From NCBI GenBank assembly GCA_963796105.1, contig CAWCKJ010000004.1, positions 96,001-160,000 of the forward strand: a DNA stretch of 64,000 nucleotides. The letters are read 5' to 3'. Of this stretch, positions 4,975-55,865 are shown piece by piece. Made by a program: the position numbers and the translations under genes. The notes beneath the pieces were generated by a model. It worked only from the letters and a program-made list of their open reading frames with translations. It had not been told where the DNA came from and did not search any database. The stretch is from a candidate division FCPU426 bacterium (lineage in GTDB: Bacteria; Oederibacteriota; Muellerivitia; Muellerivitales; Muellerivitaceae). The stretch's first letter is position 1. Every line of letters starts with the position of its first letter.

Positions 4975-6390
4975 TTAGATATCGTGGTAAAGCACGAACT
5001 CGTAAGGATGAGGGCGTAAGCGGATCGGATCGATTTCCTTGGTCTTCTTGAAATTGATCCATTCCTCGATCAGGTCCTCGGTGAAGACCCCGCCTTTCAA
5101 CAGGTACTCGTGGTCTTCCTCCAGCGCCTCCAGCGCCTCCGGTAGTGAGCCCGGGACGTTCTTGACCTTCTTCAACTCGCGCGGCTCCAGGTCGTACAGA
5201 TTGACGTCCATCGGTTTGCCCGGATCGATCTTGTTCTGGATTCCATCCAAACCCGCCAGCAGCATGGCCGGGAAGGCCAGGTACGGGTTGCAGGACGGGT
5301 CCGGTGGGCGGAACTCGACACGCTTGGCTTTCGGGCTCTTGGAGTAAAGCGGGATACGGCAGGCGGCCGAGCGGTTTCTCTGGCTGTAAACCAGGTTGAC
5401 CGGCGCCTCGAAACCCGGGGTCAAACGCTTGTAGCTGTTGACTGTCGGGCAGATGAAAGCGCAAAGCGAGGCGGCGTGCTTCAGAAGGCCGCCGATGTAG
5501 TAAAGACCGGCCTGTGAGAAACCGGCGTAACCTTTCTCGTCGTACATGACATTGGTGCTTCCCTTCCAGATGGACTGATGGACGTGCATGCCCGAGCCGT
5601 TGTCCCCGAAGAGGGGCTTCGGCATGAAGGTAGCCACCATGTTATGGCGACGCGCCACGTTTTTGATCACGTACTTGTACTTCAGGAGCTTGTCGGCCAT
5701 GCTCACCATACTGTCGAACACGATGTCGATCTCGGCTTGTCCGGCCGTGGCCACCTCATGGTGGTGCTTCTCGATCGGCACACCGATCTCCTGCATAAGG
5801 GTGGTCATCTCGGAACGGATGTCCTGCTGGCTGTCATTGGGCGGAACCGGGAAGTACCCTTCCTTATTGCGGATCTTGTAAGCCAGGTTGGGATACTCGT
5901 CGCGGCCCATGTTCCACAGACCCTCCGTGGAATCCACGGAATAATAACCCGCGTTCATGGTCTGGTCGAACTTCATGTCGTTGAACACGAAGAACTCAGC
6001 TTCAGGTCCCCAATAGGAGATATCGGCAATACCTGTTGTCTGTAAGTACTTTTCTGCTTTTTGTGTGACATAACGCGGGTCACGGGAATAAGACTGCCGA
6101 GTGACGGGGTCCACCACGTTACAGATCAAGACGAGGGTGGTAGCCTCAAAGAATGGATCGATGAAGGCCGTGTTAGGGTCCGGTATCAGGAGCATGTCGG
6201 ACTCGTGGATGGCCTGGTATCCGCGAATGGAGGAGCCGTCAAAACCGCTACCGTCCTTGAATACATCCTCATCGAAAAACTTCACGGGCTGGGTCCAATG
6301 CTGCCAGACGCCGGGAAGGTCGATGAAACGTAAATCTACGTATTTCACGTCCTTCTGCTTGATTAAATCCATTACTTCCTTCGGGGTCAT
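4975..6390 (-). CDS. glnA: Glutamine synthetase type I
   Basis: FDGSSIRG, HHHEVATAGQAEI, FMPKP..GDNGSGMHVHQS, RNRSAACRIP and adenylylation site NLYDL; GGAGG RBS. Confidence 0.98.
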   Translation of the reverse strand: MTPKEVMDLIKQKDVKYVDLRFIDLPGVWQHWTQPVKFFDEDVFKDGSGFDGSSIRGYQAIHESDMLLIPDPNTAFIDPFFEATTLVLICNVVDPVTRQSYSRDPRYVTQKAEKYLQTTGIADISYWGPEAEFFVFNDMKFDQTMNAGYYSVDSTEGLWNMGRDEYPNLAYKIRNKEGYFPVPPNDSQQDIRSEMTTLMQEIGVPIEKHHHEVATAGQAEIDIVFDSMVSMADKLLKYKYVIKNVARRHNMVATFMPKPLFGDNGSGMHVHQSIWKGSTNVMYDEKGYAGFSQAGLYYIGGLLKHAASLCAFICPTVNSYKRLTPGFEAPVNLVYSQRNRSAACRIPLYSKSPKAKRVEFRPPDPSCNPYLAFPAMLLAGLDGIQNKIDPGKPMDVNLYDLEPRELKKVKNVPGSLPEALEALEEDHEYLLKGGVFTEDLIEEWINFKKTKEIDPIRLRPHPYEFVLYHDI

Positions 6391-6543
6391 CTTTATTCCT
6401 CCTCAATTTAAGATAAAACTTGTTAAAATTTTCCGCTTTACCGGTTTGGGCCCAAAACATCTTGAATAGGTCCAAGGGGGTTAAAAACCGAAACAGTATA
6501 TCGCCCGGAAAGCCGCCAACAACAAGAAAGCGACACATTTTTA

Positions 6544-6559
6544 AGCAAAAGTCTTGCCA
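6544..6559 (-). promoter_or_regulatory. Sigma54 (-24/-12) promoter for glnA
   Basis: Minus strand TGGCAAGACTTTTGCT matches TGGCAC-N5-TTGCW spacing, ~155 bp upstream of glnA; a sigma54 activator gene is nearby. Confidence 0.85.
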
Positions 6560-6627
6560 GCGAGTGGCGAAAACAATTTTGTTGTTTTTATTATTTCATT
6601 TTCGCATGCTTCTGTATTAAGTGACCC

Positions 6628-6655
6628 TTGAAATAAAGGAATACATAGGTATACT
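6628..6655 (+). promoter_or_regulatory. Sigma70-type transposase promoter
   Basis: TTGAAA-N16-TATACT, conserved in the related IS at 23337-23364. Confidence 0.6.
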
Positions 6656-6676
6656 GTCCGCTACGGGAGGTGGTAC

Positions 6677-7585
6677 ATGAGCTACCAGCGGATGAAAAGC
6701 ATTAAAATTCTGAGGAAAATCCACACGGAAGAAGAAGCCCGCCAATGGGTGTGGAGATGCCGTTTCGGCGGGAAAGACTTTGTTTGTCCCCAATGTGAGG
6801 GCGAAAGCTTCTGGCAACACCAGGCCAAGCCTGAAGTGAGGGAATGTGACTATTGCCGGAAACGTCTTCGGCTTCGCGCCGGGACGATTTTTGAAAGCTC
6901 CAAGCTGCCTCTTTTAACCTGGGTCAGGGCCATCAGTTTGATGATGCAGGGCAAACGGGGTATTTCGGCCCTGGAACTGAAGCGGCATTTAAATCTTTCG
7001 GATCATTCGGCATGGCTTCTATTGCATAAGATCCGGGAAGGTCTTAGGCAAAAGGACGAAAGCTATACTCTAAAGGGCGTCATTGAGTTGGATGGGGCGG
7101 TTTTTGGGAAAAAGGCCAAGGAAAACCAAGTGGAAGTCTTGGTGGCGGTGGAAAGCAAGGAATGGGTGGATGAGAATGGTTGCAAGAAGGAAAAAGCGGG
7201 TTTTGCCAAGGTGAAGGTAGCTATGGAAACCAAGTGGGAGAGCCAGGAATTCGTGAATCAGACTATGGAAAAAGGCTCTTTCCTCAACACAGATGCTTCG
7301 CCAGCCTTGCGTGAACTCAAAGGAGTGGAGGCAGACTACCGGGTGATGGCCAATGACCCGAAAGAGTTGGAAAGTTGGTTGCCCTGGGTACACCGGTTCA
7401 TTTCCAACGCCAAGGCCTGGATCATTGGAACTCATCATGGCGTTGATGCTAAGTATTTAGGCCGGTATCTAAGTGAATATGCCTATCGGTTCAACCGTCG
7501 TCATGATCCCGATTCCTTATTTCACCGTGCTTTGACCGCATGTGCCTTAGCAAAACCCATTACAGCACGGTCACTTTGTGCATAA
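6677..7585 (+). CDS. IS1595-family DDE transposase
   Basis: Zn ribbon CPQC..CDYC, GTIF, IELDG, NTD, HHGV..KYL..YLSEY.YRFNRR. Confidence 0.95.
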   Translation: MSYQRMKSIKILRKIHTEEEARQWVWRCRFGGKDFVCPQCEGESFWQHQAKPEVRECDYCRKRLRLRAGTIFESSKLPLLTWVRAISLMMQGKRGISALELKRHLNLSDHSAWLLLHKIREGLRQKDESYTLKGVIELDGAVFGKKAKENQVEVLVAVESKEWVDENGCKKEKAGFAKVKVAMETKWESQEFVNQTMEKGSFLNTDASPALRELKGVEADYRVMANDPKELESWLPWVHRFISNAKAWIIGTHHGVDAKYLGRYLSEYAYRFNRRHDPDSLFHRALTACALAKPITARSLCA

Positions 7586-7691
7586 GCATACATTTTCGAG
7601 CGGATATTAAGGCATTCTTGGTCAAAAAAAATAAAAACGGGAAATTAGCCTGTAACATTTTATTTCTTAAAACATTATGAGCCAGCGGATT

Positions 7692-9296
7692 TTAGGACAA
7701 AAAGGTAGGTTTATATCCAATTTTGTATTTCTTTAGTCGGTAACCTAACTGTCTCGGGGTGATTCCGAGCAGTTTGCAAGCCCTGGATTGGACCCCTCCG
7801 CATTTTTCCATCGCTTCCATGACTCTCTTCTTCTCCAAGTCCGAGAGTGTTTCCTCTTGGTCGGGGGGATAGCTTGATTTTTCGTCATCCTGTTCCATCA
7901 CGGATCCGAGGGGTGAGGATCCACCAGGACGCAATCCCAAAGGTTGGGGGACCTCTTCGGCGGTGATTTCATTCCCCTTGGCCAAAACCGCCATACGCTC
8001 GATGGTATTTTCCAATTCCCTGACATTCCCTAGCCAGGGATGGTTCACCAACCGTCCCATGGCCTCCGTGGAAATCTGGTAATGAGCGCGATTCTCCCGG
8101 TTGTATTTCTCAAGGAAATATGAAACCAGAAGGGGAATATCCTCCTTGCGGGACCTCAGAGGGGGAAGGAAAATGGGAACCACGTTTAGCCGGTAGTAAA
8201 GATCTTCCCTGAACTTTCCCTCACCAATGGCCTTCTCCAGGTTCCGGTTGGTGGCGGCGATGATCCTCACATCCGAGCTGATGGTTTTGCTGCCCCCCAC
8301 GCGCTCGAACTTCCTTTCCTGAAGAACCCTCAGGAGCTTAACTTGGGTGGAGAGGGTGATGTCCCCCACCTCGTCCAGGAACAAGGAGCCGCCGTCCGCA
8401 AGCTCGAATCTTCCCTTCACCATTTCGGAGGCGCCGGTATAGCTGCCCTTCTCGTGGCCGAACAACTCGCTTTCCAGCAGGGTCTCTGGCAAGGCGGCGC
8501 AGGAGACTTTGATAAAGGGTTTTTGCGCGCGCGGGCTGTTGTAATGGATGGCGCGCGCGATAAGTTCCTTCCCGGTGCCGGACTCACCGCGAATGATGAC
8601 GGTGGTCCGGGTGGGGGCCACTTTTTGCACGCATTTGTAAACTTCCACCATGGACCCGGATTCCCCCACGATATTTTCCAACTTGTACTTACCCTTCAAC
8701 TCAGTCTGGAGCTCGCGGTTCTCCTCCATCAGGCTATCCTTTTCCCGCTGGATCATCTGGTGGAGCTTCAGGTTTTGGCCGATAAGGGAGGCCACGGTGG
8801 AGAGGAGACGGACGTCCTCCTCATAGGAAATATCCGAGTCCTTGAAAAGACGGTCCACCGACAGGACCCCGAGATTCTCGCCCTTGATCTTGATCGGCAC
8901 GCAGAAGAAAGAAATGTTCTGCCTCTTGATGTCTCCGCGGGCTTTGGTGCGGTTGAGGAATAAAGGCTCTTTCCCAATGTCAGGAATGAACATGGGTTCG
9001 CCCTTTTCCATCACCTTCCCCGTGACGCCCTCTCCGATGCGGTATTTACCCCTGGCGATCTCCTCTTTGGTGAGGCCGTGGGCCGCCTCGATGGAAAGCT
9101 GGCCTGTTTTCTTATCGAGGATCGTGACCGTTCCCCGGTTCATATCCAGCAATTGGGAAAGAGACTCCAGAATCTGGTTCAAGGACGATTTGAAATCCAG
9201 GGTGGAAGCCATCTTGTGAGTGATTTCATAAAGGGTGGTGAGTTCCTGGATTTTACGCAGTAATTTCTTTTGGGAATCTTTGGATGGATCAGTCAT
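7692..9296 (-). CDS. NifA-like sigma54 enhancer-binding protein (GAF - AAA+ - Fis HTH)
   Basis: N-terminal GAF ([19 protein letters not shown]), [46 protein letters not shown]-terminal HTH. No nif genes in the window. Confidence 0.9.
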
Positions 9297-46991: not shown

Positions 46992-47272
46992 ATAGCCCTT
47001 GTTTTCGGATGGGATGTGGACCAGTCAGCTATTAATCTTAAAAAACATGGTGTATCCTTTGAGGAAGCCGCCACTGTGTTGAGCGACCCATTATCCTTTA
47101 CCTTCGATGATCCGGGCCATTCATTGACTGAACATCGCTTTATAACGATAGGCCTATCAACGGATGGGAGGACCCTGGTATTTTCACATACTGACAGGGG
47201 ACATTTAATAAGGCTCATTAGCGCCCGAAAGCGACAAGGCGAGAGAGGAAGTTCTATGAGAAAGAAAAATAA
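46992..47272 (+). pseudogene. BrnT-family toxin, degraded (ATA in place of start, 1-nt deletion fusing it to the antitoxin)
   Basis: (ATA)ALVFGWD....NLKKHGVSFEEA..D..HS..E.RF..IG..IRLISARK. Adding one A at 47228-47230 gives the canonical ARKATRRERKFYE and a stop at 47270-47272. Confidence 0.8.
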
Positions 47273-47474
47273 AAACGAATTGCGGTCGGAATACGACTTT
47301 CAGCGGTTAAAAGGCGGTGTGAGGGGAAAATACGCGGATCAATACCATTCAGGGACCAATCTCGTCCATTTGGATCCCGACGTTGCCAAAGTTTTCGAAA
47401 ACGCCGAGTCGGTCAACCAGACCCTGCACTCATTAATTAAATTCGCCAAAACCCAAATGGCGCATAGCCGCTGA
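47256..47474 (+). CDS. BrnA-like antitoxin
   Basis: ELR.EYDF..L.G.VRGKY....GTN.V.LDPDVA..F..AESVN..L; typical partner downstream of BrnT. Confidence 0.75.
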   Translation: MRKKNKNELRSEYDFQRLKGGVRGKYADQYHSGTNLVHLDPDVAKVFENAESVNQTLHSLIKFAKTQMAHSR

Positions 47475-47562: not shown

Positions 47563-47934
47563 ATGAGCGACAAATCCCAGATTCAATGGCTTCCGGAACC
47601 CGAGGATAAGGACTATCCGGCGGCCCAATCCTACCTGAGCCTTTTCCATACCGAAACCGAGACCATCGGTTTTGTGAAGAAGCTCAAGGACGCCAAGATC
47701 ACCCAGTTCAAGGCCAAGGACATTTTCCGGGCCTCGGGACTGTCGCTGTTGGGCGTCAGCAACTACCACGTCGGCAAGGACCAGCAGAAAATCAAGGATG
47801 GTAAAGCCCTCTCACCACTCCTGTTGGTCCGGGACCCCCAGAACGGAAAGGTCGTCATCGCCGACGGCTACCACCGCCTCTGCGCGGTCTATTCCTTCAA
47901 CGAGGATGAGCTGATCCCCTGCAAAATCGTTTAG
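47563..47934 (+). CDS. Small ParB/sulfiredoxin-like domain protein
   Basis: LSP.LLV...VIADGYHRLCA motif; AGGAGG RBS. Confidence 0.7.
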   Translation: MSDKSQIQWLPEPEDKDYPAAQSYLSLFHTETETIGFVKKLKDAKITQFKAKDIFRASGLSLLGVSNYHVGKDQQKIKDGKALSPLLLVRDPQNGKVVIADGYHRLCAVYSFNEDELIPCKIV

Positions 47935-47972
47935 CCGTTTCTTACCCAAAAACTATGTCTAAATTTTTTAAA

Positions 47973-48184
47973 TTAAAATCGTTGAGTCAATGTCAAACCG
48001 GGCGAGTGGGTGTGGGGTAATAAAATCATTGATAAATTTTGATCCGGCACGACCTCGTGGTTGTAACGCAACACGGCGTCTGTCCTGCACTTATCCGCGT
48101 CACTCTTCAACATAAATCCGATGGCGACAGCAACAACTCCCGAGCCTGTGAGTAACCAAAATGGCGTTTGATCAGCGCCTTTAG
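47973..48184 (-). pseudogene. 3' half of membrane-protein gene split by the IS1380 transposition unit
   Basis: Manual translation: (K)GADQTPFWLLTGSGVVAVAIGFMLKSDADKCRTDAVLRYNHEVV...TQRF*; in frame with 53963-54379 across the TTTAG duplication. Confidence 0.85.
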
Positions 48185-48211
48185 AGCCTATTTACCCTTT
48201 ACCGGGTGATA

Positions 48212-48272
48212 AGGCCCCGGGCTTGCCCGGGGCCTAGCCGTGTACTTGGCCGGGGTCATGCCCCGGCCAAGT
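48212..48272. repeat. Two adjacent GC-rich REP-like hairpins
   Basis: AGGCCCCGGGC-TT-GCCCGGGGCCT (48212-48235) and ACTTGGCCGGGG-TCATG-CCCCGGCCAAGT (48244-48272). Confidence 0.7.
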
Positions 48273-48420
48273 GGCAGCTCGGTCCAAGTACTCAAAGGTC
48301 ATCCAGTCGTATCCTGGATTTGATCCGATAGTATTTAAAGTAGAAAAGGGAGAGCTGTCCCTTGACGGTGTCAACGCCATTTCAAACCCCATCCGCGCAT
48401 TCCGCTTTGGGAGGGATCAT

Positions 48421-48452
48421 AAAAAAACACCGCCCCGGGGTGCGGGGCGGTG
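48421..48452 (-). terminator. Intrinsic terminator of the lipoprotein gene
   Basis: CACCGCCCCG-GGGTG-CGGGGCGGTG followed by a U7 run on the minus strand. Confidence 0.75.
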
Positions 48453-48548
48453 CCGGTGCTTCACGATCGTTATTGGACCTTGTGTGATCTTCACCATCAG
48501 AAGGGGGCTTGGCCCTCCCCGGCGAAGCGTACCTAAGAATGTCCCGTT

Positions 48549-51500
48549 TTATTGGAACGCCATGACCGTGGCGTTACCGCCGCTGTTGCCATCCGAAAAA
48601 GCCACGTAAGTCGTGCCGTTGGGGGAAAATGCCAAGGACGTATAACTGGCCGATCCGGCGGAGAAACCCGCGCTCCCCACGTTCGCCCAACCACTCCCGG
48701 TGAAGCCCATGACTGTGGCTTGGTTACCGTTTGCGTAATCCTGAAAAGCCACGTAGGGTTTGCCGGAATAAAAAGCCAGAGACGTATAATTGGCCGTCCC
48801 GGCGGAAAATCCCGCGTTCCCCACGTTTTGCCAACTGCCCGAGGTGTATTCCATGACCGTGGCTTTATAATCATTGCCGCAATCCTGAAAAGCCACGTAG
48901 GGATTGCCGTAGGCATCAATAGCCAGCGACGTATAATTGGCCGGCCCGGCGGAAAAGCCCTCGCTCCCCACGTTTTGCCAACCGCCCGAGGTGTACTCCA
49001 TGACCGTGGCTTTATAATCATTGCCGTATGCGTAATCCTCAAAAGCCACGTAGGGCTTGTTGTTGTACATGGCCAGCGATATATAATTAGCTTCCCCCGA
49101 GGAGAAATCCGGACTCCCTACATTCACCCAATTTCCTCCGATGTACGCCATCACCGAGGCTTTATTGCCGTTCGCTTGATCCTGGAAAGCCACGTATTGC
49201 GTGCCATAGCCGTCAAAAGCCAGCGACGTATAATTAACCCCTCCGGGGGCAAAACCAGCGGTCCCCAGGGTCGCCCAACCGGACCCGCTGTCATACATGA
49301 CCGTGGCGTTACCACCAACATTCCCATCCGAATAAGCCAAGTAGGGCGCGGTGCCGCTGATGTTAAAAACCAGGGACGTATATTGGACCCAGGCGGCGGA
49401 AAAACCCGCGCTTCCATAATTTGCCCAACTGCCATTGCTGTATTCCATCACCGTGGCTTTAGTGCCGTTGGCGTCATCCCGAAAAGCCACGTAGGGATTC
49501 CCGTCGGTGTCAAAAGCCAGCGACGTATATTCGGCCTGTCCGGCGGAGAAGCCCGCGCTCCCCACGTTATTCCAGTTCCCGTGGGGGTTGTGCACGTTCA
49601 AGGTGGCGGTCGCCGTAGGGGTTGATGTGTTGGTCGGGGTTGATGTGATGGTGGGCGTTGCCGTGAAAGTCGGGGTATTTCCGCCGCAGTAATTCATATA
49701 AATACTAAACGAAACTTCATTTTCAACGGACCCTCCACTGGGGTAAGTTCCGGGAAAGGCCCCGAAACTGTAGCTCACGAATACGGTCTTATCCCCAAAA
49801 CCCGTAACCACCTGGGTGGAATTTTGAACCTGGCAAACTAGCCAATAAGTCCCCGCATTGAGGTAAGCCGCCGGAACCGGGATCGTGTTCCAGCCGTTGA
49901 CGGCCGATTGGGCCGCCCCCTGCGTAATAAGGCTGATGGGGCCCGTCGCCTCGCTACCGGAATAAAGGGCCGCGTTCACTTGGCCCGAGGCGCCGCTCAA
50001 ATAAACCGAAATACTCTCGATGCCCTCCCCGACTACCGGAATGTTCACCTCGTTTGCCCACAGGTCTCCTGCCCCGGGTATTAAATTCAGGTATGGGCTC
50101 GTGATTCCAGCTTGGGACGGCGACGAGCAATTAATCGTGGTACTGGTGGGTGTGAGTGTGGGTGTAGGGGTCACGGGAATAGTGATCGTGACGGCGTCGA
50201 TATAGACATTTCCCGTCGCCCCGGCGGCGATACCCGGAATATCAACGCCGAACTGGGAAATATGGTGGGTATCCACGGCACCCGTTGAGCCGGTTCCGCC
50301 GGACCCGGAAGTCAGGGGGATCAATTGCACCCACTTGCCGCCGGTCACATTGGTCCATTGGCCTTCAAAGAGATAAGTCGCGGAGGCCCCGCCCACGGCG
50401 GTCGCGCTTTCATCGAAAACTATGGCGCCGGTGTTGCCCAAACTGGCGTCGCAGTAAACATACGCCCCTATCGAGGCCCCGTTGAAATCCTGGGCGGTAC
50501 TATAGCTGACTTCAAGCTGCAAGGCCCCGGTTACCGCGGCTGAATTGGTGACGCTCACCGCCAATGCCCCCGAACTGCCGGTAGACAATTGGGCCGTGGA
50601 TATGCCGATGGTGTTGATATTCACGGTCGTGCCGCCGTAGGGATCCGAATGCCAGCAATCCATGCTGCTCGCGAAGGTATAGGTCGTCTGGAGCGTGGGC
50701 GCGTAGCAAATGGTGGGTGTGATGGTGGGCGTTGCCGTGAAAGTCGGGGTATTTCCGCCGCAGTAATTCATATAAATACTAAACGAAACTTCATTTTCAA
50801 CGGACCCTCCACTGGGGTAAGTTCCGGGAAAGGCCCCGAAACTGTAGCTCACGAATACGGTCTTATCCCCAAAACCCGTAACCACCTGGGTGGAATTTTG
50901 AACCTGGCAAACTAGCCAATAAGTCCCCGCATTGAGGTAAGCCGCCGGAACCGGGATCGTGTTCCAGCCGTTGACGGCCGATTGGGCCGCCCCCTGCGTA
51001 ATAAGGCTGATGGGGCCCGTCGCCTCGCTACCGGAATAAAGGGCCGCGTTCACTTGGCCCGAGGCGCCGCTCAAATAAACCGAAATACTCTCGATGCCCT
51101 CCCCGACTACCGGAATGTTCACCTCGTTTGCCCACAGGTCTCCTGCCCCGGGTATTAAATTCAGGTATGGGCTCGTGATTCCAGCTTGGGACGGCGACGA
51201 GCAATTAATCGTGGTGCTGGTGGGTGTTTTGGTGGGGGTATAGGTGGGAGTATTGATCGGGGTATTGGTGATCGTATTGGTGGGGGTATTGGTCGGCGAA
51301 TTGGTCGGCGAGGTCGACCCCGTGCTGGTAATAGTGGAAGTCGGAGTGTAGGAGGGCGGCGCGGGCGAATTCACGAATTGGATCTCGTCCACCTGGAAAT
51401 TGAACGGCTGTCCCCCGGGGACCTGGAATTGCATGTTGATGATCTTGGCCCAGTCCAAGGCCACGGGAGCGCCCCAACCCTGCTGGGACAACTGCGTGGT

Positions 51501-52094
51501 GTAGAAAGTGTAGGGGGCCCATGCGCTGGTCAGCGTCACCGAGGCCCCGTAGCTGTCCCCGCAGCTCACGGCGCAGGAGCCGCCGTTGGCCAGCGTCATC
51601 GTCTCATCGGTGCCGATGGTGAAATGGACGACCTGGCCCGCGGGGGTGGAGAGGGCGTAAAACTTGACCCCCGTGTACCCGTAGGACTGCGCGTTATAGT
51701 CCAAGGGCGCGGATGCGAGGAAATTAAAGCCCAGACCCGCCCCATAGCCCGTGAAGCCCGAACCGTTGATGCCCATGGAGTAAAGCGTCCCGTTGGCGCC
51801 GCCGCTGGTGACGGCCAGGGGGTTGGGTAAAAGGGTTCCGCCCGTCCCGTCGTTGTAGGTGTACCAGTAGCCGTTCCTGCCCTGCTGGACGATGATTTGG
51901 GTGTTCTGGTCCTCCAGGTTGTCGATCATCATCGAGGCAGGCGAGGGAGACGTAGTGCTGGTCGGGGTGGACTTGCCGCCTCCCGGGGAAGAGGGGCTGT
52001 TTTTGCCCGGACAACCCAGGAACAGGAAGCAGATGGAGAAGCAGAGGAACAACAAAACCATCTTGCCGGATTGGGGAATGGAGAATCGGTGCAT
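48549..52094 (-). CDS. Modular surface lipoprotein: CBM11/CIA30-like domain, duplicated beta domain, CBM-like domain, C-terminal beta-propeller
   Basis: Lipobox LFLGC; IDNLED....G.WYTYNDG CBM11-like domain; TPT linkers; seven ~48-aa repeats W.NVG.AGFSAG.A.YTSLA...PYVAF.D...ATVM. Confidence 0.75.
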   Translation of the reverse strand: MHRFSIPQSGKMVLLFLCFSICFLFLGCPGKNSPSSPGGGKSTPTSTTSPSPASMMIDNLEDQNTQIIVQQGRNGYWYTYNDGTGGTLLPNPLAVTSGGANGTLYSMGINGSGFTGYGAGLGFNFLASAPLDYNAQSYGYTGVKFYALSTPAGQVVHFTIGTDETMTLANGGSCAVSCGDSYGASVTLTSAWAPYTFYTTQLSQQGWGAPVALDWAKIINMQFQVPGGQPFNFQVDEIQFVNSPAPPSYTPTSTITSTGSTSPTNSPTNTPTNTITNTPINTPTYTPTKTPTSTTINCSSPSQAGITSPYLNLIPGAGDLWANEVNIPVVGEGIESISVYLSGASGQVNAALYSGSEATGPISLITQGAAQSAVNGWNTIPVPAAYLNAGTYWLVCQVQNSTQVVTGFGDKTVFVSYSFGAFPGTYPSGGSVENEVSFSIYMNYCGGNTPTFTATPTITPTICYAPTLQTTYTFASSMDCWHSDPYGGTTVNINTIGISTAQLSTGSSGALAVSVTNSAAVTGALQLEVSYSTAQDFNGASIGAYVYCDASLGNTGAIVFDESATAVGGASATYLFEGQWTNVTGGKWVQLIPLTSGSGGTGSTGAVDTHHISQFGVDIPGIAAGATGNVYIDAVTITIPVTPTPTLTPTSTTINCSSPSQAGITSPYLNLIPGAGDLWANEVNIPVVGEGIESISVYLSGASGQVNAALYSGSEATGPISLITQGAAQSAVNGWNTIPVPAAYLNAGTYWLVCQVQNSTQVVTGFGDKTVFVSYSFGAFPGTYPSGGSVENEVSFSIYMNYCGGNTPTFTATPTITSTPTNTSTPTATATLNVHNPHGNWNNVGSAGFSAGQAEYTSLAFDTDGNPYVAFRDDANGTKATVMEYSNGSWANYGSAGFSAAWVQYTSLVFNISGTAPYLAYSDGNVGGNATVMYDSGSGWATLGTAGFAPGGVNYTSLAFDGYGTQYVAFQDQANGNKASVMAYIGGNWVNVGSPDFSSGEANYISLAMYNNKPYVAFEDYAYGNDYKATVMEYTSGGWQNVGSEGFSAGPANYTSLAIDAYGNPYVAFQDCGNDYKATVMEYTSGSWQNVGNAGFSAGTANYTSLAFYSGKPYVAFQDYANGNQATVMGFTGSGWANVGSAGFSAGSASYTSLAFSPNGTTYVAFSDGNSGGNATVMAFQ
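49644..51227 (-). repeat. Near-identical ~510-bp intragenic duplication (49644-50153 and 50718-51227)
   Basis: Offset 1074 bp; identical peptide TINCSSPSQAG...YMNYCGGNTPTFTATPTIT occurs twice. Confidence 0.9.
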
Positions 52095-52257
52095 AAGAGG
52101 CTTCCTATAAATAAAGTGTTAAAAAGTTGAAGATATCCCCTTCAATCACCCTTCTTCCCGCAGAAGGGGTATCGAAAAAACATCCCGATGAATGGGATTT
52201 AAAATTTCTCTTGGCAAAATTATTTTACGTGGGCGTGGAAAATCTAAAGAAGTTTAA

Positions 52258-53962
52258 CCGGGATTTCCCAGATGACTTCTTCCTGCAACATCGCCGGTTA
52301 ATTTGTTCCTCATTATATTGCCCCCCCCCCGCTTCTTCCATCGGAATTCAGAATTTTCAGGTCCCAGGCCAGTTGAATGAGCCCCAGGAAAAGGTTTATG
52401 TGCCCAAAAAACCTGAAAAATGACTTTCGGAAAGGCTATTCTCGTTGTGAGCGCACACTTATCCAACGATAGTTGATCGGGTTGCAGCCATGAAGCGTTC
52501 CTGCGGTTATCGCAGTACTGGTGCTCGCGGCCTTACCATCGCCAATAGCCGTTTCCGATTAAGGATTTCAGCAAACAGGCGTCGGGAAACCATCACCTCC
52601 GCCATCTGAAAAACCACGTACCGCGAATGGCGGATGACATTGGCCCCGATCTTGATGAGTTTTTCCCGCAAGGTCGTCAACGACCAATGTTTCACCATTT
52701 CTGGCAAGACCAGACGGCGCAGGAAGTTGCCCAGATTGTAAGCCAGTGCAAATAGTTGCAACCTTACTTGATTGTCCGCGAAGTCGTGGCAACTTAGTCT
52801 TGTCCACTTCATCGCGTACTTCCCCTCCTTGATCCACTGCTCAGCCGTGCCTCGCCCGTTGTAGAACCTCACCACCTGAGGAGCCGGTCGACGCATGTTC
52901 GTCACAATGAAACCAACCCTCGGGAAAAGCTCGCCATGGTGGTGTTCTATTTTCGCCACCACGCGGCGGGGTGTATTCCAACTGGCGGCTTGGTATTGGA
53001 AGCTGTGATACCGGAGGACAGGCTTGTAGGAAGGGCGGCCCACGGGACGGATTAAAAATGGCTCAATTTCCCGTTGCAGCACGTCATTAGCGGGTTGGCG
53101 GATCGCGTAAAGGTATCTTTCGTCTTCCAGGTACTCGTATAGTTCCTGACGGGCGAAGGCCGCGTCACCCCGGAAAAACCGGCTGATGGAAAGACCCCGG
53201 TAGCGGGCAACTACCGGTTCAAGAACCGAGCGCCATTCGTGGGCGCTGGCCACATTGCCGTTGCGCAACATCCCCCGTTCCAAATCACCGAACTGGTTGA
53301 AGCAGAAGAGAGGATGGTAGCAGGTACAGCCAAAATAACCGTTGTACAAGGAGCCTTCCTGATCCCCGTAGGTCTCGCTCACGGAGCTGTCCATGTCGAG
53401 GACGATCTGTTGGATGGGCTTTTTTTTATGGACCGCATCAATCCATTGGCCGGACAGATTAATCAGGCCGATCAGGTTTTTCGACTGGGTGAGAACCTCC
53501 GTTTCGAAACGTCCCATCTGGCTTGTGGAGGCGGCCTGTTTGTCCCTCGCCCGTCCTCCGATTACATGCCGCATTGCGGGATCGACACTCAAGCGCTCCG
53601 CGTCGTTGGTATCTTCGTATCCGGCCAAGCGGCTGAATACCGACTGGCGAAGAAGCGCCGTCATCGTGTGTTGCGTGTTCTTGCCGGTCCGCCGATCCCA
53701 AAGGATGTTTTCGGATGAGGCCGTCAAGCCGAAGGCTTCATCCAACTCGCGATAGGGAATCAACCCGCCGTCGGAAGTGACCTTCGCACCATGAAATTCC
53801 AGTTTGAGACCAGGATCAAAAACCACCCGAAGAGCGTCTTTTCTGCCTTCACCCATTGAATTTCCCCTTCTCGTAATCCCCGAAGTGAAGAAAAACCTTT
53901 GTTTATATAGCCAAACGATGTCTTATTATACTCGAAGAGAAATTTCATCTGGGAAATCCGGG
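52258..53962 (-). mobile_element. IS1380-family element, 1705 bp
   Basis: 18-bp TIRs CCGGGATTTCCCAGATGA / CCCGGATTTCCCAGATGA. Confidence 0.9.
52507..53856 (-). CDS. IS1380-family DDE transposase
   Basis: TSDGGL, GYED.NDA, LDMDS, YHPL, RGDAAF, Y..RG.AEQWIKEGK, N.VRLQL..LAYNL. Confidence 0.95.
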   Translation of the reverse strand: MGEGRKDALRVVFDPGLKLEFHGAKVTSDGGLIPYRELDEAFGLTASSENILWDRRTGKNTQHTMTALLRQSVFSRLAGYEDTNDAERLSVDPAMRHVIGGRARDKQAASTSQMGRFETEVLTQSKNLIGLINLSGQWIDAVHKKKPIQQIVLDMDSSVSETYGDQEGSLYNGYFGCTCYHPLFCFNQFGDLERGMLRNGNVASAHEWRSVLEPVVARYRGLSISRFFRGDAAFARQELYEYLEDERYLYAIRQPANDVLQREIEPFLIRPVGRPSYKPVLRYHSFQYQAASWNTPRRVVAKIEHHHGELFPRVGFIVTNMRRPAPQVVRFYNGRGTAEQWIKEGKYAMKWTRLSCHDFADNQVRLQLFALAYNLGNFLRRLVLPEMVKHWSLTTLREKLIKIGANVIRHSRYVVFQMAEVMVSRRLFAEILNRKRLLAMVRPRAPVLR

Positions 53963-54379
53963 TTTAGTAACTGTCCAATCATTCTCGAGTGAGCTTTTTG
54001 CCGTAATCTCATAAATAAACCCCGCCGCGCATAAAAGACCCCCTTCCACAAGGAAAGCCATGCCTGTGTTGTCATTGTCCGCGGAGGACCTGAGGAGTCG
54101 GTCCGCTTCCGGATCGTTAAGGGGGTCAAGGACCGCCTTCAATTGCTGGAAGGACTCTAATTTTAAGCCTTTATAATAATAGTTCTGGGTCGGCCTTTTA
54201 TCAGCTCCACCATGCTGGATCTCAATGGGATAGAATTTTTGTTCAGAACCAGATTTTTTAATCTTGGTTTTCTTGTATTCTGCTTTAAGAGTGTTTTGGC
54301 CTATTTGGGTGTCCAGCGATTGGCCAAACCCCCCGGACGCAATCAGGAATACTAAGAAAAAAACTGCTAATTTCCGCAT
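53963..54379 (-). pseudogene. 5' half of split membrane/secreted protein gene
   Basis: Signal peptide MRKLAVFF...; the ORF runs into the IS TIR after WTVTK and continues at 48179 if the insertion is removed (207 aa reconstituted). Confidence 0.85.
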
Positions 54380-54512: not shown

Positions 54513-54759
54513 CATTCCGACAGGGCTTCCAACAGCCAGATTGCGCATTCCGACAGGGAGCCCGGCTTTCCGACAGGGCTTCCGACAGTCAGACCGCCCA
54601 TTCCGACAGGGGGCCGTCCTTTCCGACAGGCCTTCCAACAGTCAGACCGTTCATTCCGACAGGGGCTCGGGCTTTCCGACAGGGCTTCCGACAATCAGAC
54701 CGCGCATTCCGACAGGGGCTCGGCATTTCCGACAGGGCTTCCGACATCTGTGGGCAGGG
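54513..54759. repeat. Array A: 53-bp higher-order tandem repeat built from TTCC(G/A)ACA cores
   Basis: CATTCCGACAGG starts at 54546, 54599, 54652 and 54705; cores are spaced 21/11/21 bp. Confidence 0.9.
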
Positions 54760-54799
54760 AATCTTGAAGTCAATGTTAAATTTTGAGTTTTGAATTCTT

Positions 54800-54846
54800 A
54801 ATTTTGGTAGATTTCCGGGGTTTGGAAATCCTCGATAATTCAACAT
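54800..54846. repeat. ~47-bp box, copy 1
   Basis: AATTTTGGTAGATTTCCGGGGTTTGGAAATCCTCGATAATTCAACAT; the last 26 bp are identical to 55984-56009; contains palindrome GATTTCC-N7-GGAAATC. Confidence 0.85.
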
Positions 54847-54985
54847 CCCGCCCCGAGTATTATCGAGGGGTTAACATTCAGAATTCATAATTGCCGTTAA
54901 AAAGTGAGTAGGATTTCCTTTGCCGACCGGCAGGTTAGCGACCCCGACCGCCGAAAAACCCGAATCGACCAGCGGGCTCCCGGAA

Positions 54986-55177
54986 CCTGCGGGCAGGACT
55001 CCCGAAAATTACGGGCAGGGCTCCCGACACCTGCGGGCAGGACCCCGAAACCTGCGGGCAGGGCTCCCGACACCTGCGGGCAGGGCTCCCGACACCTGCG
55101 GGCAGGCTCCCGACATCTGCGGGCAGGACTGCCAAAACCTGCGGGCAGGGCTCCCGGCATCTGCGGGCAAGGTTCCC
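54986..55177. repeat. Array B: nine 21-22-bp iteron-like repeats
   Basis: Consensus CCTGCGGGCAGGGCTCCCGACA; units start at 54986, 55008, 55030, 55051, 55073, 55095, 55116, 55138 and 55160. Confidence 0.9.
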
Positions 55178-55215
55178 AGCTAGTTCCCGAGTTCCCTGGT
55201 TCCCGGCTAATTCCT

Positions 55216-55865
55216 GAGTTCCAAGGTTCCAGGCCAGTTCCAGGAGTTCCAGAGTTCCAGGATTCCCGGGTTCCAAGGTTCCAGGCCAGTTCCAGGAGTT
55301 CCAGAGTTCCAGGATTCCCGAGTTCCAAGGTTCCAGGCCAGTTCCAGAAGTTCCAGAGTTCCAGGAATCCCGAGTTCCAAGGTTCCAGGCCAGTTCCAGA
55401 AGTTCCAGAGTTCCAAGATTCCCGAGTTCCAAGGTTCCAGGCCAGTTCCAGGAGTTCCAGAGTTCCAGGATTCCCGGGTTCCAAGGTTCCAGGCCAGTTC
55501 CAGGAGTTCCAGAGTTCCAGGATTCCCGAGTTCCAAGGTTCCAGGCCAGTTCCAGGAGTTCCAGAGTTCCAGGATTCCCGAGTTCCAAGGTTCCAGGCCA
55601 GTTCCAGAAGTTCCAGAGTTCCAGGATTCCCGAGTTCCAAGGTTCCAGGCCGGTTCCAGGAGTTCCAGAGTTCCAGGATTCCCGAGTTCCAAGGTTCCAG
55701 GCCGGTTCCAGGAGTTCCAGAGTTCCAGGATTCCCGAGTTCCAAGGTTCCAGGCCAGTTCCAGGAGTTCCAGAGTTCCAGGATTCCCGGGTTCCAAGGTT
55801 CCAGGCCAGTTCCAGGAGTTCCAGAGTTCCAGGATTCCCGGGTTCCAAGGTTCCAGGCCGGTTCT
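55216..55865. repeat. Array C: 12.5 copies of a 52-bp unit built from six (G/A)TTCC cores
   Basis: GAGTTCCAAGGTTCCAGGCCAGTTCCAGGAGTTCCAGAGTTCCAGGATTCCC every 52 bp from 55216 to 55840, with degenerate flanks at 55178-55215 and 55866-55922. Confidence 0.95.

Follow-up and report, generated by a model that had tools for sequence, protein, structure and literature searches.

How can an insertion sequence (IS) carry one copy of a target-site duplication at its left end while the other copy lies about 4 kb beyond its right end, next to DNA that is no part of the IS? This arrangement occurs in a 64,000-nucleotide stretch (hereafter, the window) from an uncultured candidate division FCPU426 bacterium (assembly GCA_963796105.1, contig CAWCKJ010000004.1, positions 96,001 to 160,000), in which an IS1380-family element and a gene for a predicted surface lipoprotein together split a third gene, here called the host gene. 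An original prediction, made from the DNA letters alone, held that the IS1380 element had brought the lipoprotein gene there by transposition in the style of ISEcp1, and our follow-up supports this by way of the duplication, the in-frame host gene, copies of the same IS clade in related genomes, and a second unit of this kind in one of them (G001). We consider it very probable that a single insertion introduced the IS together with 4,073 bp of adjoining DNA through ISEcp1-type read-through of its right end, which would make the whole block a "transposable module." The features of the block are as follows (window positions; IRL, the inverted repeat on the left side of the IS; IRR, the one on its right side; aa, amino acids):

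47973-48179, minus strand: C-terminal part of the host gene, 68 codons plus stop (GADQTPFWLL...AVLRYN...LTQRF, then stop)
48180-48184: copy 2 of the target-site duplication, TTTAG, 4,073 bp past the intact IRR
48185-52257, minus strand: captured DNA, 4,073 bp, outside the IRR and 3′ of the transposase gene
48185-48202: distal end of the unit, the presumed cut site in place of the IRR, with no detectable inverted repeat
48198-48275: repetitive extragenic palindromic (REP)-like double-hairpin repeat, 13 bp inside the distal junction, native to the genome and to the bacterial family
48426-48454, minus strand: terminator-like hairpin (12 pairs, 9 of them G-C, and a T run), ~95 bp past the stop codon of the cargo gene
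48549-52094, minus strand: cargo gene, intact, for a predicted lipoprotein of 1,181 aa, starting 163 bp past the IRR and co-oriented with the transposase gene
52253-52257: TTTAA beside the IRR, the first bases of the cargo, probably left over from the duplication of a donor-site insertion
52258-53962, minus strand: IS1380-family insertion sequence, 1,705 bp (IRL, 53945-53962; IRR, 52258-52275)
52507-53856, minus strand: transposase gene, intact, 449 aa (Pfam PF13701, DDE_Tnp_1_4)
53963-53967: copy 1 of the target-site duplication, TTTAG (CTAAA in transposase orientation), abutting the IRL
53963-54379, minus strand: N-terminal part of the host gene, 139 codons from the ATG at 54379 (MRKLAVFFLV...ENDWTVTK)

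The block that interrupts the host gene measures 5,778 bp (48185-53962) and consists of the IS (1,705 bp) and the 4,073 bp outside its IRR. It is bounded by a perfect 5-bp duplication, TTTAG (48180-48184 and 53963-53967); the immediate flanks of the IS itself, TTTAA (52253-52257) and TTTAG (53963-53967), form no duplication. All of the coordinates on which the original prediction based this contrast hold. The geometry is that of a transposition unit: the IRR is internal and has no copy of the block's duplication, which is found instead at the IRL and at the end of the DNA past the IRR. On the minus strand, the captured 4,073 bp run from a 163-bp leader through the 1,181-aa open reading frame (ORF), the terminator-like hairpin, and the REP-like repeat to the last 13 bp. 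Taken alone, the 5-mer carries no weight: the 7,257 bases beyond the right end contain CTAAA four times, and at two of these sites the join leaves an open frame, such that the match is not significant by itself and homology of the host-gene halves becomes the deciding evidence.

When 48185-53962 and one TTTAG are excised, the two host-gene parts fuse in frame into 139 + 68 = 207 aa, and the junction of ENDWTVTK with GADQTPFWLL that had been predicted is borne out by the coordinates. In a six-frame search of the bacterium's own genome plus 40 relatives, the N-terminal fragment has matches in 16 of the 41 genomes, all from the same bacterial family and mostly in open frames of 190 to 240 aa; the product is a signal-peptide protein of a group restricted to this family. 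Both fragments were then run separately by tblastn against nine fetched loci (L016 to L024). In seven of these (L016 to L021 and L023), comprising eight ORFs with two paralogues in L017, both fragments fall on a single ORF, keeping frame and order, with E values of 1e-18 to 1.4e-25 for the N fragment (2.6e-9 in L023) and 4e-7 to 1.7e-19 for the C fragment. The N and C matches in these ORFs are separated by gaps of 13 to 22 codons, and in the alignment the join falls inside a poorly conserved linker of variable length, with conserved blocks neither lost nor doubled. Counted from the first Met, six of the eight ORFs are 201 to 236 aa long (the other two, 275 and 442 aa), against the predicted 207 aa. 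Full-length homologs of the rebuilt protein, which the original prediction had proposed to look for, are present in seven of the nine loci. Two outcomes had been named as telling against it, namely, that the halves match different protein families or that relatives have the lipoprotein at this locus without the IS. What we found is one protein family and, in those seven loci, a gene that is uninterrupted and has no lipoprotein gene inside. The remaining two loci yielded, by tblastn, an insignificant C-fragment match in another frame (L022) and no C-fragment match (L024). The N-terminal part has no Pfam family, and a word-based protein search with this half retrieved only the window's own product. 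Convergent to the split gene lies a 123-aa ORF (47563-47934, plus strand) with no Pfam match, the DNA of which is 76 to 84% identical across many genomes of the bacterial family.

Read on the minus strand from 53962, one end of the IS is CCCGGATTTCCCAGATGA; read on the plus strand from 52258, the other is CCGGGATTTCCCAGATGA. A repeat finder places the terminal inverted repeats at 52256-52275 and 53945-53964 (arms of 20 nt, 95% complementary). The transposase matches PF13701, which we take to be the model for IS1380-type transposases, over residues 11 to 434 of 449 (E = 7.8e-129). It is only distantly related to annotated members, showing by tblastn 24% identity over 90% of its length to ISEcp1 transposases and 28 to 29% identity to others of the IS1380 family. 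One DDE transposase, a length of ~1.7 kb with terminal inverted repeats, and a short (4 to 5 bp) duplication all agree with membership in that family. The genome contains only two matches to the IS in total, the second copy being 88% identical. A promoter scan found five promoter-like sites, versus a mean of 5.1 in shuffled sequences, i.e., no excess.

Many copies of this IS clade exist in four relatives (G001, G002, G011, and G016), and these fix how the element normally inserts. From 15 fetched stretches and one further locus, taken from a search that reported 561 related transposase loci, we obtained 15 full-length copies with both flanks. In seven of the 15, CCCGG...CCGG is bracketed exactly by perfect direct repeats of 5 bp (TTTAC, TTAAG twice, TTAAA twice, TTTAA, and TCAAA), which establishes both the ends of the IS and the 5-bp length of its duplication and shows that the clade has a TTWAA-like target preference. 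The other eight copies, among them L035, L036, L039, L040, and L046, have no duplication at their own ends. Three copies (L035, L036, and L040) were compared with a same-genus genome (G018), in which there was too little synteny to locate empty sites.

One of the copies in G001 provides a second, independent case of read-through. In this sister genome, two copies (L045 and L046) are followed by 449 bp past the IRR that are 100% identical and then diverge. The plus strand of L045 consists of TTTAC (5547-5551), the 449 bp (5552-6000), the IS (6001-7704), and again TTTAC (7705-7709). Identity between the two copies ends exactly at the TTTAC duplication, beyond which L046 runs on into other DNA; the chance that the five bases following the identical segment equal the five before the IRL is about 1 in 1,000. 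The corresponding region of L046 (5552-7704), itself without an own-end duplication, is thus a donor-like copy for the 449-bp unit. An ORF across the rejoined L045 site would be only 92 aa, and this insertion was probably intergenic. The L045 unit shows that the clade moves the IS along with adjoining DNA of differing lengths, and, together with the window unit, it points to read-through as a trait of the wider family.

Applied to the window, the proposed sequence of events would be as follows. The transposase would have used the IRL in combination with a cut site 4 kb past the IRR, and the whole 5,778-bp block would have been inserted in one transposase-mediated event, with TTTAA beside the IRR as the probable scar of an earlier insertion at the donor site. 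The insertion appears to be recent, because open frames persist in either half of the host gene as well as in the transposase and cargo genes. It would have inactivated the host gene, and the cell would have gained a predicted surface protein with a fold resembling that of a carbohydrate-binding module (CBM). A source of the cargo within this same lineage is plausible, given that the cargo contains a native repeat family and has a G+C content similar to that of its surroundings.

The cargo product begins with MVLLFLCFSICFLFLG followed by C, the signal peptide ending in ...LFLG immediately before this cysteine, an N terminus that presumably represents the usual lipobox pattern. In addition to an N-terminal CBM11/CBM30-like domain, the protein has Pro/Thr linkers, a module that is duplicated internally, and repeats of ~99 aa at the C terminus. 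No Pfam match was found for the cargo, no CBM family matched the N-terminal domain at an E value of ≤5, and no PDB sequence matched. An AlphaFold model of residues 41 to 250, built from a six-sequence alignment, has a mean predicted local distance difference test score (pLDDT) of 72.8 and a predicted template-modeling score (pTM) of 0.74. The top Foldseek match of this model is a CBM11 structure (1v0a; E = 3.3e-8; template-modeling score by target, 0.70), a CBM30 entry (1wzx) is also matched, and a language-model look-up agrees with high confidence on a CBM-like fold (Atlas lead). We therefore predict a beta-sandwich fold of the CBM11/CBM30 type for this domain. The original prediction had described the cargo as a carbohydrate-binding lipoprotein with its terminator: the lipoprotein (as a prediction) and a terminator-like hairpin stand, whereas the attribute "carbohydrate-binding" goes no further than the predicted fold.

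Two kinds of internal repetition mark the cargo gene. Its 3′ part (48560-49622) holds three to four diverged repeats of 297 nt, and a near-perfect duplication within 49638-51011 (at least 300 nt at 99% identity, spaced 1,074 bp apart) means that one protein module is present twice in nearly identical form. Either a recent event or an assembly effect may lie behind this duplication.

The distal end of the unit matches the inverted repeat at 7 of 12 and 8 of 18 positions, and the weak resemblance to the terminal repeat claimed in the original prediction is correct as a count of 7/12. That score is equalled or exceeded, however, at 282 of 6,989 downstream positions (176 of them within the unit), so the likeness is at the level of chance. 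The end of the L045 unit scores lower, with 4 of 12 matches. Partial similarity to the IRR, a soft expectation for a substitute right end, was thus not found; published substitute ends, such as IRR1 in the sections of PMC6061673 that treat these units, are also weak.

The REP-like repeat, 13 bp inside this end, starts with (C)TTTACCGGCTG and has two G+C-rich hairpins. Searched by blastn, it has 24 matches in its own genome (including itself), most of which start at positions corresponding to 48197-48201 and 15 of which end at 48275. Other genomes of the bacterial family have several copies of an ~170-bp version (whose extent corresponds to window positions up to 48366). There is no Rfam family in 47900-48600 and no Pfam match for the two small ORFs over the element. 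Its position so near the cut may be a coincidence.

Several observations weigh against a single read-through insertion. The distal end has no detectable likeness to the IRR, which leaves the determinant of the cut unexplained, and the transposition is itself read from the scars it would have left. In addition, searches of the bacterium's own genome, the 40 relatives, 31 genomes of the bacterial family, and contig collections turned up no donor of the cargo. The cargo DNA is single copy in its own genome, and segments of it match the 40 relatives at only 64 to 70% identity. Its domain family is common in the bacterial family, with a best protein identity elsewhere of 42% for the N-terminal domain (31 family genomes, including its own). 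Scans of genome_contigs and metagenome_contigs returned no relative of the cargo. The same IS-cargo junction was accordingly not seen at any donor site for the window unit, the only donor-like copy being L046 for the 449-bp unit of G001. Finally, no empty site was seen at the DNA level, and the same-genus genome, queried with the N-terminal fragment, lacks the host gene. Nine public sequencing runs each contained at most 0.10 of the sampled words. From four of these runs came only short contigs; most belong to IS relatives, and a few are nearly identical to parts of the IS or of the cargo gene. None bridges either junction or skips the unit, a result with no bearing on the empty site.

Three other histories could have produced this layout, and we judge them improbable even when taken together: each requires a coincidence that is exact to the base at 48184/48185. 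The block may have formed in two events, either by insertion of the IS alone, with later mutation of its duplication, into a host gene that already held the 4-kb segment, or by later insertion of the cargo between the IRR and the adjacent copy of the duplication. The own flanks of the IS do agree at four of five bases (TTTAG/TTTAA), which speaks for this history, but such agreement between an old scar and a new target is expected from the TTWAA-like preference of the clade. The cargo, moreover, has neither a mobility gene nor ends of its own, and a second insertion would have had to strike exactly at the IS boundary and also to meet CTAAA at its far end in order to preserve the host frame; in addition, read-through does occur in the clade, as seen in the IS plus 449-bp unit of G001. 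A history in two events is thus very unlikely.

A composite transposon with two IS copies, the distal one later lost, would likewise leave a short duplication around the whole unit. However, 48185-48548 contains neither an IS remnant nor a solo inverted repeat, a search of the own genome detected no other IS, whole or fragmentary, close to the distal end, and only a deletion accurate to the single base would have left the duplication abutting cargo DNA. This origin is extremely unlikely. A false join through the repeated IS has to be considered in a metagenome-derived assembly of 16 contigs with a second IS copy at 88% identity. We find it scarcely credible: such a join would not explain why the cargo, at its far end, meets the other (C-terminal) half of this host gene in frame and at the duplication, and two IS copies that differ by 12% are too dissimilar to collapse. 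A single insertion by right-end read-through therefore remains our favored explanation.

Whether this clade takes up particular genes is a separate matter. In six of the eight copies without an own-end duplication, both copies in the bacterium's own genome among them, a co-oriented gene whose start resembles a signal peptide lies within 40 to 350 bp of the IRR; the same holds for one copy that does have its duplication (L065). This pattern may come from insertions into promoter regions rich in A+T or from the capture of such genes. The second own-genome copy (C4:446157-447860, equal to L002 1501-3204) splits a subtilisin-like gene after codon 132 (...PTDQYYSSPYN). The remainder of this gene is absent from the assembly, and a 769-aa paralogue on C12, which served as the probe, continues with the catalytic domain. 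The flanks of this copy (ATAAT/TTAAC) form no duplication, and no convincing distal duplication was found for it. Beginning 149 bp past its IRR is a co-oriented gene for a 519-aa lipoprotein with Pro/Thr linkers; the CBM-like domains of this protein and of the window cargo share 24% identity.

From the eight of 15 copies without an own duplication, at least two of them read-through units, and the six of these eight with a signal-peptide gene, one might suppose that, in this uncultured soil lineage, the clade habitually shuttles genes for secreted and surface proteins, but we regard this as unlikely. Were it true, read-through would be about as frequent as ordinary transposition and would need no IRR-like end, and the repertoire of surface proteins with carbohydrate-binding-like folds would be reshuffled.

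Two further features lie outside the block. At lower window positions, the first 72 residues of a 152-aa ORF (47016-47474, plus strand) match the family of BrnT ribonuclease toxins (PF04365; E = 2e-21), and what follows may be an antitoxin-like part, either fused or overlapping. On the other side, three successive tandem arrays occupy 54515-55864, with long open frames on both strands:

54515-54746: tandem array, 53 nt × 4.4
54974-55177: tandem array, 22 nt × 9.4
55210-55864: tandem array, 52 nt × 12.6, 97% matches

The closest parallel to the window unit is found in the ISEcp1 (ISEc9) units of Enterobacterales, which carry blaCTX-M, blaCMY-2, and other genes. As described in the relevant parts of PMC6061673, such units extend from the IRL to a supposed IRR, are flanked by 5-bp A+T-rich repeats, and have the IS 116 bp before the gene. 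The window unit shares with them a single IS, the use of the IRL with a distant substitute right end, and a 5-bp A+T-rich duplication around the whole; the cargo, too, lies past the IRR, 3′ of the transposase gene and co-oriented with it, its start about 100 to 160 bp past the IRR. It differs in that the transposase is just 24% identical, the cargo gene encodes a predicted surface lipoprotein and does not confer resistance, the unit resides in an uncultured environmental bacterium, and nothing resembling the IRR can be detected at the distal end, which shows that the far end need not look like the inverted repeat.

Other IS1380-family elements behave similarly. The transposable modules (TMos) of Paracoccus, as outlined in PMC3281130, consist of one IS1380-family copy and adjoining genomic DNA of various lengths; like those of ISPme1 and IS1247a, the units described here combine a single IS copy with flanking DNA (4,073 bp for the window unit, 449 bp for the one in G001), although the Paracoccus modules were caught in trap plasmids, whereas the window event is read from chromosomal scars. 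In Sphingobium herbicidovorans MH, an IS1380 element was copied with the adjoining yfcG, gstB, and rutE, according to the account in PMC5737581, and there, as here, non-resistance neighbors were copied into the chromosome of an environmental bacterium. That case involves several identical copies, whereas ours has another host, another cargo, one copy, and no donor found. The same source describes one-ended (rolling-circle) transposition by IS91/ISCR elements, in which one IS moves variable lengths of adjoining DNA; membership in that group is ruled out for the window element by its IS1380-type DDE transposase, terminal inverted repeats, and 5-bp duplications.

The statement in the original prediction that mobilization by ISEcp1 (IS1380 family) is documented mainly for resistance genes is thereby weakened, since capture of non-resistance genes is already on record in these two sources (PMC3281130 and PMC5737581). 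Both the mechanism and a non-resistance cargo having been published, the window unit is clean but ordinary. Its value is as a natural example in which a distant IS1380 relative has, on the reading we favor, carried along a 3.5-kb gene, still intact, that encodes a predicted surface lipoprotein, and has thereby disrupted another gene, such that capture of the ISEcp1 type appears to be confined neither to resistance genes nor to Enterobacterales.

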